From NCBI GenBank assembly GCA_051874955.1, contig JBJEGJ010000055.1, positions 127,094-191,093 on the forward strand: a stretch of 64,000 bases of DNA. Direction: 5' to 3'. The DNA comes from Candidatus Gastranaerophilaceae bacterium (GTDB lineage: Bacteria; Cyanobacteriota; Vampirovibrionia; Gastranaerophilales; Gastranaerophilaceae). A program made the translations under genes and the position numbers. Under the pieces are notes generated by a model. The model searched no databases. It had not been told where the DNA came from and saw nothing but the letters and a program-made list of their open reading frames with translations. Of this stretch, positions 35,519-36,571 are shown in pieces (position 1 is the stretch's first letter; every line of letters begins with the position of its first letter).

Positions 35519-36571
35519 CTATTCATTAAATGTTTTAAATGTGCTGTCGATATTTTTAGAAATAATTTTGTGAACTGCATCCATTTCTGTTTGTAATGCG
35601 TTTTGTTCCGTATCAAGAGCTTTTAATCTTAATTCCAAAGTTCTGTCTTCAGTTTGGATTTGTTCTGTTTTTGCGTTGATATCTTGAACTTTCTTTTCAT
35701 AGAGTTGTTGTTCATAATTGTATTGATTCATCGCGTCATTGTATGCGTTTTCATCTGTTACGCTGGACGTTTTGAGTTCATACACTACGCTTGAACCTTC
35801 AAGTTGTAATGATGTGGCTCTGCCGCTGCCATCATATTCAATAATGCCGTATTTTGAAAGTTCTTTATTTGTTTTTTGATAATCGGCATAATAAGAATGT
35901 AATGCCAGCGTATTATCTTGTCTGCAAGCTTCAAGGCTGTCATTTGTATTTGAAGTTTGTGATACAAAATTTACTTGAGTACCTGTTTCTGTCCAGAAAT
36001 ATATATTATCAAGGTAGGATTCATCCCCTGTATTTCTGTAATTTGTCCAGTCTTGTGCAAGCTGAGTGTCAGGCCAATCTTCTGCAATTTGATCCAAACT
36101 TGCTTGATAAGTACCCCAAATACTGTTTTTGTCAGTATCTGTTTTGTCAACGGTATTTAAGTTTGTTAATTTTTTTGTTCCGACCATGTAATATCCGTCA
36201 GAGCCTTCCAAAGCAACATATTGTACCTGCGGATTTGTTTTTGTGTTACGTATACCCGTGTATTCGGAAATTTCAGAATAATAGGTTACGTATGAATTGT
36301 AATTTATTCCGTCAATATCCGTGTAATCCGCACTTTGAATATTTGAGATAACTTGAGTTGTATCACCGTTATTAAAAGAATATTGGGTTGTTGTAAATTC
36401 ACTTGTGCTTGGCGCAGTCGGAACTTCCATGCTGTATAATTGGTTCCATAATTCGGAACTTTGGTTAGCAAGAGCTGTTCTGGCTTGATTTATCTGTTGT
36501 CCTTCGTATTCAACATTTGATTTTCTTGCTGCAAGTGATATCCAGCGTGCTTGTGATGCGGCTAAACCCAT
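35519..36571 (-). CDS. Conserved-termini / variable-core protein (350 aa), MGLAASQAR family; putative filament subunit
   Basis: AAGGAG RBS 8 nt upstream. The N- and C-terminal ~45 aa align with 51872..53920, while the core is unrelated and S/T/N/Y/D-rich. Confidence 0.75.
   Translation of the reverse strand: MGLAASQARWISLAARKSNVEYEGQQINQARTALANQSSELWNQLYSMEVPTAPSTSEFTTTQYSFNNGDTTQVISNIQSADYTDIDGINYNSYVTYYSEISEYTGIRNTKTNPQVQYVALEGSDGYYMVGTKKLTNLNTVDKTDTDKNSIWGTYQASLDQIAEDWPDTQLAQDWTNYRNTGDESYLDNIYFWTETGTQVNFVSQTSNTNDSLEACRQDNTLALHSYYADYQKTNKELSKYGIIEYDGSGRATSLQLEGSSVVYELKTSSVTDENAYNDAMNQYNYEQQLYEKKVQDINAKTEQIQTEDRTLELRLKALDTEQNALQTEMDAVHKIISKNIDSTFKTFNE

Follow-up and report, generated by a model that had tools for sequence, protein, structure and literature searches.

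Three related genes of the window

The present analysis concerns a stretch of 64,000 nucleotides (nt) from a Candidatus Gastranaerophilaceae bacterium (assembly GCA_051874955.1, contig JBJEGJ010000055.1, positions 127,094 to 191,093), called the window at its full length, and a protein family encoded in it whose members carry conserved helical ends around a variable centre. An earlier, sequence-only reading of this DNA had pointed to three open reading frames (ORFs) with an organisation resembling that of flagellin, and both the coordinates and the translations of these ORFs were confirmed (lengths are given in amino acids, aa):

35519..36571, minus strand: canonical family member of 350 aa, with an N-terminal helix at residues 2-47, a beta-rich core at ~56-272 and a C-terminal helix at 274-349
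51872..53920, plus strand: divergent long family member of 682 aa, with an N-terminal helix at residues 2-50, a mixed alpha/beta core and a C-terminal helix at 619-681
28906..29238, plus strand: mini-member of 110 aa, with the family N-terminal helix joined to the C-terminal helix without a core

The 350-aa and the 682-aa proteins do begin with the same nonapeptide, MGLAASQAR, and the homology proposed for both of their ends was borne out by BLASTP. Residues 1-44 of the 350-aa protein align with the start of the 682-aa protein at 43% identity (E 3e-9), and residues 300-348 align with residues 632-680 at 33% identity (E 3e-6), with no alignment obtained between the cores. The part common to both proteins is restricted to the helical ends, comprising ~50 aa at the N-terminus and ~50-80 aa at the C-terminus. 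Against profiles built from the ends of the family, the 350-aa protein scored E 1e-32 at the N-terminus and E 6e-39 at the C-terminus, and the 682-aa protein E 1.4e-12 and E 6e-7, respectively. The 110-aa ORF taken alone matched the same profiles weakly (E 3 and E 0.6). By BLAST, however, it groups with 23 proteins of ~107 aa from other loci, and the alignment of this mini group corresponds in hhalign to the family N-terminus in columns 1-53 (E 2e-7) and to the family C-terminus in columns 58-106 (E 1.8e-7). Since the group matches both ends of the family, the proposed reading of the 110-aa ORF as a core-less member is supported.

The absence of a Sec or prepilin signal and of a transmembrane segment also held, as the N-terminus of the 350-aa protein (MGLAASQARWISLAARKSN) is polar and its maximum 19-residue hydropathy is 0.13. 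No N_methyl match was found in this protein, unlike in the nearby ORF 49847..50635 (minus strand), a type IV pilin-like gene with an N-terminal methylation motif; genes of that kind were seen near family genes in 14 further loci.

Size, distribution and conservation of the family

In a database clustered at 90% identity, the 350-aa protein has 2,730 homologues, all of them unnamed or "hypothetical", and those with a taxonomic label all come from Melainabacteria or Gastranaerophilales genomes; the 682-aa protein has 696 full-length homologues. An exhaustive HMMER search of 1.84 billion representative proteins recovered at least 1,733 clusters (50% identity) of proteins between 215 and 1074 aa long, and most of them match as two separate stretches, one per end. 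In a scan in which each GTDB species was represented by one genome, at least 477 matches were confirmed, and the best 80 of these lie in Gastranaerophilales or Melainabacteria genomes. A few genome matches bear other submitter labels, and several of those have the same neighbour genes. The proteins studied here are members of a large family without a name, confined as far as seen to the Gastranaerophilales of the gut, relatives of cyanobacteria that do not photosynthesise.

For comparison of the genomic surroundings, the window was set beside 80 related loci, giving 81 sources in total, and the end profiles were run on all of their ORFs. One to four family members were found per 20-kb locus. 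Three size classes are present per genome: members of ~330 aa, often in tandem, long members of 540-800 aa, located at a distance of a few kb or at another place in the genome, and the core-less minis of ~108 aa.

Across the family, the near-invariant helices measure ~55 aa at the N-terminus and ~80 aa at the C-terminus. The consensus of the family N-terminus is MGMAASQARFLxLTARKxNVEYEGQQINQQR..., and that of the C-terminus is ...QDKxLELRLKQLDTEQxAIxTEMDAVKKVIxKNVExTFKTF. When the 350-aa protein was compared with 35 orthologues, identity reached 89% at the N-terminus, 61% in the core and 87% at the C-terminus, and in the comparison with 49 diverse members the corresponding values were 64%, 15% and 60%. 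The same pattern was seen among orthologues of the 682-aa protein (88%, 48% and 82%). The ends are thus measurably better conserved than the core. As to the core, which had been described as hypervariable, the description is right for paralogues and separate lineages, where identity falls to 15%, but not for close orthologues, whose identity of 61% makes the core alignable and moderately conserved. Its composition is dominated by T (11%), D (8%), S (8%), Y (8%) and N (7%), with C, W and H each below 1% and M and R also scarce. Such a composition resembles that of flagellin variable domains, and the proposed flagellin-like layout is indeed what the family displays, the helices at either end being conserved and the core, in which T, S, N, D and Y abound, being variable.

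Searches for homology and fold

Searches with Pfam, NCBIfam and PHROGs, made on all family and partner proteins, returned weak generic coiled-coil matches only. Neither Flagellin_N/C nor Flg_bb_rod matched the window proteins or the 49 diverse members at E values up to 1, so the canonical flagellin signatures are missing, as the sequence-only reading had stated. Flagellin_N detects FlgL of the same order (locus L058) at E 2e-12, yet it detects no family member, and the family alignment reached hhalign probabilities of just 0.6% against that FlgL and 0.15% against FlgK of the same locus. None of the PDB sequences was matched, either by a single protein or by the family profile (no flagellin at E up to 10).

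The AlphaFold2 model of the 350-aa protein, computed with the 35 orthologues, has a pLDDT of 88.7 and consists of a single helix at each end, the C-terminal one of 76 residues, and a beta-rich core with long hairpins between them. The model of the 682-aa protein (pLDDT 72) likewise places terminal helices around a mixed core. In a Foldseek comparison of both models with the PDB no match had an E value below 0.09 and none reached a TM score of 0.2; for the 682-aa model there was no match below E 2.6. The flagellin, hook and cap entries of the PDB appeared at E 0.2 or higher with TM below 0.2, flagellins having a probability below 0.1. Weak matches to phage PA14 and tail proteins were obtained among viral structures (E 2.4e-4), and these were set aside as local beta-sheet resemblance since TM does not exceed 0.2. 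Possible resemblances between the N-terminus and ESCRT-III/PspA, and between the C-terminus and type III needle proteins, found no support from any tool and were not used.

The family is undescribed, in that it has no Pfam, NCBIfam, PHROGs, PDB or Foldseek match, and the profile and structure searches brought no characterised family to which the whole protein could be assigned. It could still be argued that these proteins are true but extremely diverged homologues of flagellin or hook-associated proteins, serving as the working flagellin of most Gastranaerophilales. The layout, the tandem copies, the sigma-28-type promoters and the flgK-flgL neighbour in L058 described below all agree with that explanation, and fliC is reported missing by annotation pipelines in most genomes of the order. 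We nevertheless regard it as quite improbable. The profile that recovers FlgL of the same order and the profile-profile comparison (probabilities below 1%) both fail to reach the family, and the flagellin D0/D1 fold, with ~140 aa of N-terminal and ~90 aa of C-terminal helices and a four-helix D1, is not found in the AlphaFold2 model. Because the N-terminal helix of the 350-aa protein has only ~47 aa, there are no helices that could form a D1 domain. Moreover, canonical flagellins are reported in the order, and clade genomes with the family appear to be without a recognisable FliG, which makes rotation doubtful.

Operon, partner genes and rearrangement

Clustering of neighbour genes revealed a recurrent operon in which one to three tandem family genes are accompanied by three smaller genes, named here GLY (~271 aa), S90 (~90 aa) and the mini-member (~108 aa). 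The order family gene(s)-GLY-S90-mini was found in 23 loci. In the window the two partner genes are:

34685..35500, minus strand: GLY, 271 aa, rich in Gly, Ser, Thr and Ala, directly downstream of the 350-aa gene
28627..28899, plus strand: S90, 90 aa, very basic and helical, always just upstream of the mini-member

GLY follows directly after a family gene in 32 of the 81 sources and can be regarded as a fixed operon partner. Its ends are helical, residues ~166-200 form a hydrophobic stretch (maximum hydropathy 1.82), and it gave no match in Pfam, NCBIfam or PHROGs. The same three libraries gave no match for S90. Both proteins were considered as diverged family members and rejected as such, since the likeness of GLY to the family C-terminus is weak and merely suggestive (hhalign E 0.003, probability 10%) and S90 was negative in hhalign.

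The operon is intact in locus L003 (10001..18201), whose orthologue is 80% identical to the 350-aa protein. In the window it is divided, with S90 and the mini-member (28627..29238, plus strand) lying apart from the 350-aa gene and GLY (36571..34685, minus strand). Judged from the gene order in 28627..36571 of the window and in L003, a block consisting of LpxK, MlaD, the family gene and GLY has been inverted and moved across the block that runs from S90 to an acyltransferase, and it is by this rearrangement that the window operon was split.

A 229-aa protein without family assignment is encoded tail-to-tail with the mini-member (29244..29933, minus strand) and occupies the same position in 12 loci of the clade; it may be part of the system, or its position may reflect shared ancestry. 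A second conserved setting of family genes was observed in L012, L017, L020, L022, L023, L025, L026, L037, L038 and L051, where three genes precede the family gene. Their products have ~230 aa and an N-terminus rich in Cys, ~497 aa and membrane segments, and ~155 aa, respectively. No Pfam or meaningful NCBIfam match was obtained for these three genes, and a long member lies a few kb upstream of the setting in L017, L026 and L051.

Promoters and a candidate operator

Upstream of family genes, a sequence of textbook sigma-28 form, TAAAGTTT-N11-GCCGATAA, is found. In a relaxed version, the motif is present 20-70 nt upstream of 55 of 118 family genes, where 0.42 would be expected. The strict version, TAAAG-N14-16-GCCGATA[AT], has 17 copies in 2.7 Mb of locus sequence; 11 of them sit 22-44 nt upstream of family genes and another 3-4 upstream of the S90-mini pair. 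Within the window, the pattern TAAAGTTT-N10-12-NCCGWWWW occurs exactly twice against 0.03 expected, both times before transcription units of the family. The form anticipated for promoters of the late regulon, TAAA(GTTT)-N11-15-GCCGATAA, is thus present in the family, and in a variant form at the 682-aa gene and the S90-mini pair. The regulatory features of the window are as follows:

28479..28505, plus strand: sigma-28-like promoter TAAAGTTT-N11-GCCGTATA, variant form, 122 nt upstream of the S90-mini pair
51798..51824, plus strand: sigma-28-like promoter TAAAGTTT-N11-GCCGTAAT, variant form, 48 nt upstream of the 682-aa gene
51764..51780, plus strand: palindrome TGTAACGAAATGTTACA, 18 nt upstream of the -35 element, candidate operator
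36609..36636, minus strand: sigma-70-like promoter TTGACT-16-nt spacer-TATAAC before the 350-aa gene, read by eye
36658..36651, minus strand: CGTATAAT element upstream of the 350-aa gene

The element in front of S90 recurs 121-167 nt upstream of this gene in 11 loci. Orthologues of the 682-aa gene have an equivalent site, which reads TAAAGTTT-N11-TTCCGTAAAT in L081 and is similar in L083. The palindrome is not confined to the window either, as ~30 loci have TGTAAC-N5-GTTACA, with up to two mismatches, at a fixed distance of 16-19 nt before the sigma-28-like -35 element. It looks like the operator of a dimeric regulator specific to the regulon of the family.

The sigma-70-like site of the 350-aa gene was not listed by the consensus scanner because its second hexamer ends in C, and TTGACT...TATAA(A/C) is kept upstream of the orthologues in L001-L011, L054, L069, L072, L078 and L080. 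The sigma factor encoded beside S90 (27411..28427) was considered as a candidate FliA and dismissed, being of the RpoD type and having become adjacent through the rearrangement described above.

Two further observations concern the surroundings of these promoters. In locus L050 (5913..6786), an unrelated coiled-coil protein of 274 aa, encoded 3 kb upstream of the family operon, has the strict sigma-28 consensus (TAAAGATACAAAATACTGATGCCGATAT) in front of its gene and is a further candidate for this regulon. In the window, the ~0.9 kb of non-coding DNA before the 682-aa gene (50900..51760) carries three copies of hairpin-bearing repeats, e.g., GATCCTGAAATAAATTCAGGATGACA and TGTCACCCTGAACTTGTTTCAGGGTCTAGCC. 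Rfam gave no match anywhere in the window, this stretch included, and the repeats may be elements similar to miniature inverted-repeat transposable elements or to repetitive extragenic palindromes.

Phage-like genes near long members

In several species, orthologues of the long member stand directly after a phage-like block composed of an amidase, Phage_capsid_4, small and large terminase and an SU10-type portal (L081-L085, 1..9900; IMG/VR loci L092-L103), and orthologues also lie at the edge of ~11 IMG/VR contigs. The long-member orthologues in the species with the block are merely 36-54% identical to the window protein. This proximity raises the question of whether the proteins could be phage-derived structural components, such as a fibre or a needle. 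The block is, however, missing from the window and from L086, the gene of the long member has its own sigma-28-like promoter, and the viral contigs account for 12 matches, situated at contig edges, as compared with at least 477 in genomes. Since the block is optional, the promoter is the gene's own and the viral-contig matches are few and peripheral, a phage origin of the long member was dropped. For the family in general, in which there is no PHROGs match and the canonical members reside among housekeeping genes, such an origin is hardly credible. The block itself may mark a hot spot of integration, or it may be a domesticated element.

Flagellar genes in the vicinity and in the order

Flagellar genes were found near family genes in three arrangements. 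In L058 a family gene is convergent with a canonical operon of flgL, flgK, flgN, an unassigned 104-aa ORF, flgJ, flgI, flgH, flgA, flgG and flgF. In seven loci of the clade of the window, fliE and fliF lie ~7 kb from the family gene (in L003, 7 kb downstream), and in the four loci that reach far enough, fliF and the next gene are followed by fliH. Lastly, fliOPQR was found at a distance of ~8 kb from long-member orthologues. The expected place of fliG, between fliF and fliH, is taken by a gene that gave no Pfam or NCBIfam match to FliG and only a faint one to MgtE_N. Its positions in three loci are:

L005, 14090..15097: gene at the expected fliG position, no FliG signature
L054, 9185..10195: gene at the expected fliG position, no FliG signature
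L080, 17508..18527: gene at the expected fliG position, no FliG signature

A gene in this position without a FliG match fits a machine that no longer rotates.

These arrangements can be placed beside what is published on the order. Complete flagellar sets were described in only about a quarter of Gastranaerophilales genomes, the rest retaining flhB, fliI, flgG and others (bioRxiv 10.64898/2026.04.24.720558). The table of Soo 2014 lists FlhA, FlhB, FliP, FliR, FliI, FliJ, FliE and FlgB/C/F/G as present, and FlgE, FlgD, FlgK, FlgL, FliC, FliD, FliS, FliM, FliN, MotA and MotB as absent. With only the genes for export gate, ATPase and rod retained in most Gastranaerophilales, and fliC, fliD, flgE, flgK and flgL gone, what is left is an export machine lacking a known cargo.

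The window also contains a stator-like gene pair (56474..58088, minus strand), coding for a 302-aa membrane protein of the ZorA/MotA type (NCBIfam ZorA_2, E 6e-18) and a 231-aa protein of the ZorB/MotB/OmpA type. The long tail of ZorA is missing from the 302-aa protein, and neither ZorC nor ZorD is encoded in the vicinity. The pair could be the stator of a reduced flagellar machine, or an orphan ion-driven motor.

Possible functions of the family

In layout and regulation the family resembles flagellin or another axial subunit, yet all membership tests run for those families failed. With sigma-28-type promoters and, in related genomes, flagellar genes nearby, its members are most economically read as a new class of late export substrates of the flagellum, and we lean, with reserve, towards the view that they leave the cell through the flagellar type III export apparatus and assemble through their conserved terminal helices. 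According to this model, the genes would be expressed in the late regulon, with their promoters presumably recognised by a sigma-28/FliA-type factor. Lacking a Sec signal, the proteins would pass through the flagellar type III apparatus and then associate outside the cell, via the terminal helices, into a filament, a segment of a filament or a sheath, with the variable core exposed on the surface. The mini, middle and long classes with a single pair of ends mirror the rod, hook and junction proteins, which share one terminal motif pair. The undescribed filament or surface system suggested by the sequence-only reading is retained here as far as the family being undescribed is concerned; a stand-alone system it probably is not, in view of the sigma-28-type promoters and the flagellar neighbours.

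Several observations weigh against this model. In none of the searches made did the family show sequence, profile or fold similarity to any axial protein, and the median cysteine content is two per family protein. The invariant start, MGMAASQAR, is unlike typical type III export signals. No sigma-28-like site was seen at the 350-aa gene of the window or at its clade orthologues, where a sigma-70-type promoter is found instead. Likewise, neither the 64-kb window nor any of the loci showed a fliA gene, so that the sigma-28 assignment derives from the promoter consensus alone. A flagellar gene within 10 kb or within the fetched flank was present in only 10 of the 81 sources, and these are not independent observations; most of the weight is consequently borne by the promoters. 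Finally, canonical flagellins are known from four Melainabacteria genomes (Di Rienzi 2013), and since such flagellins exist in the order, the family is not simply the flagellin of Gastranaerophilales.

Some of these observations suit proteins that are never exported, i.e., cytoplasmic or periplasmic coiled-coil proteins co-regulated with motility, such as intermediate-filament-like scaffolds, accessories of the motor or of chemotaxis, or regulators. The sigma-70-like promoter of the 350-aa gene in the clade of the window and the presence of cysteines are in line with this explanation, as are the lack of a signal peptide, the long coiled-coil ends and the fact that generic coiled-coil families were the only library matches. 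On the other hand, a hypervariable core rich in T, S, N, D and Y and a length range of 215 to 1074 aa would be unusual for a scaffold, and neither the many paralogues per genome nor the late-flagellar promoters are what such a role would lead one to expect. Intermediate-filament proteins possess a conserved central rod with variable head and tail, the reverse of the pattern seen in the family, which also counts against a scaffold. An intracellular role therefore seems unlikely.

Somewhat less unlikely, though still a minority option in our judgement, is that the proteins are exported by the flagellar apparatus without polymerising, as adhesins, effectors or immune decoys, and that the conserved ends are signals for export or chaperone binding. 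The promoters and the synteny fit this explanation equally well, the variable cores look like binding or surface domains, and the weak Foldseek matches to phage PA14, tail and adhesin proteins (E 2.4e-4, TM up to 0.2) point in the same direction. Sigma-28-dependent cargo that is not flagellar has a precedent (PMC2764114, PMC5223770). The role would be parallel to that of Campylobacter FlaC, Cia, FspA and Fed proteins. What such a role leaves unaccounted for are the ~130 near-invariant helical residues at the ends, which go far beyond the known needs of an export signal. The core-less mini and the size series with one pair of ends fit co-assembly better, and tandem multi-copy genes are typical of structural subunits.

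A more far-reaching scenario can tentatively be drawn, which we consider possible but doubtful. In most Gastranaerophilales, the flagellum might have turned into a motor-less type III secretion appendage, with a filament made of this non-flagellin family. Export gate, ATPase and rod would have been kept, and hook, flagellin, switch complex and stator would be absent. The mini-member could act as a core-only subunit or as a chaperone mimic, and the hydrophobic, Gly-rich GLY as a tip or translocator-like component. Such an appendage would be a second independent conversion of the flagellum, beside the injectisome, and would have occurred in a widespread human gut lineage.

The flagellar sets of Gastranaerophilales have been reported as "incomplete" since 2013-2014, with the role of the retained gate and rod left unexplained, and the family offers a concrete candidate for the cargo. 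Should it form a filament, this would be the first flagellar-type appendage built from a protein without detectable homology to flagellin, and one that the host, sensing through TLR5, would probably not detect in this common commensal of the human gut. Even if the proteins turned out to be secreted cargo only, a large unannotated family would have been recognised, together with a cis-regulatory module consisting of the palindrome and the sigma-28-like promoter.

Other genes of the window

Apart from the genes discussed above, the window encodes a ShlB/FhaC-type transporter of two-partner secretion, with POTRA_2 and ShlB domains (44888..46927, plus strand); no TpsA-like match was found in the scanned ORFs neighbouring it. 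Two large ORFs, of 788 aa (6606..8972, minus strand) and 589 aa (59525..61294, plus strand), gave no Pfam or NCBIfam match.

Comparison with known systems

Flagellin (FliC/Hag; PF00669, PF00700) and the family have in common the conserved terminal helices and the hypervariable, surface-like core, as well as tandem paralogues, sigma-28-type promoters, the lack of a Sec signal and, in one genome, adjacency to flgK-flgL. They differ in that no match between them was found by hidden Markov model, profile-profile or fold comparison, and in that the N-terminal helical region of the family spans ~47 aa as compared with ~140 aa, its first nine residues being invariant. In addition, canonical flagellins are reported separately in the order. 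The rod, hook and hook-associated proteins (PF00460, PF06429; FlgB/C/F/G, FlgE, FlgK) also enclose beta-rich domains between a short N-terminal and a C-terminal helix, and form a size series with one terminal motif pair, as the family does with members of ~108, 330 and 600 aa. However, their terminal motifs bear no relation to those of the family, hhalign gave a negative result with FlgK of the same order, and the promoters of the family are late (sigma-28-like), whereas rod and hook genes belong to an earlier class.

Among secreted proteins, Campylobacter FlaC, CiaC, FspA and FedA-D are likewise cargo linked to sigma-28, have no Sec signal and have their genes outside the core flagellar operons, but they are small, few and unrelated in sequence, and do not make up a large family with invariant ends and variable cores. 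By analogy, the family can also be likened to the EspA filament with CesAB and to needle and tip proteins, in which coiled-coil assembly takes place on a type III machine. The ~107-aa helical-hairpin relative beside the subunit belongs to this likeness, and the hydrophobic GLY recalls translocators. There is, however, no homology to these proteins, and genes of an injectisome were not seen. Finally, crescentin, FilP and the cyanobacterial coiled-coil-rich proteins have coiled-coil segments and no signal peptide, as the family does, whereas the family combines conserved ends, a variable beta-rich centre and flagellar-type promoters.

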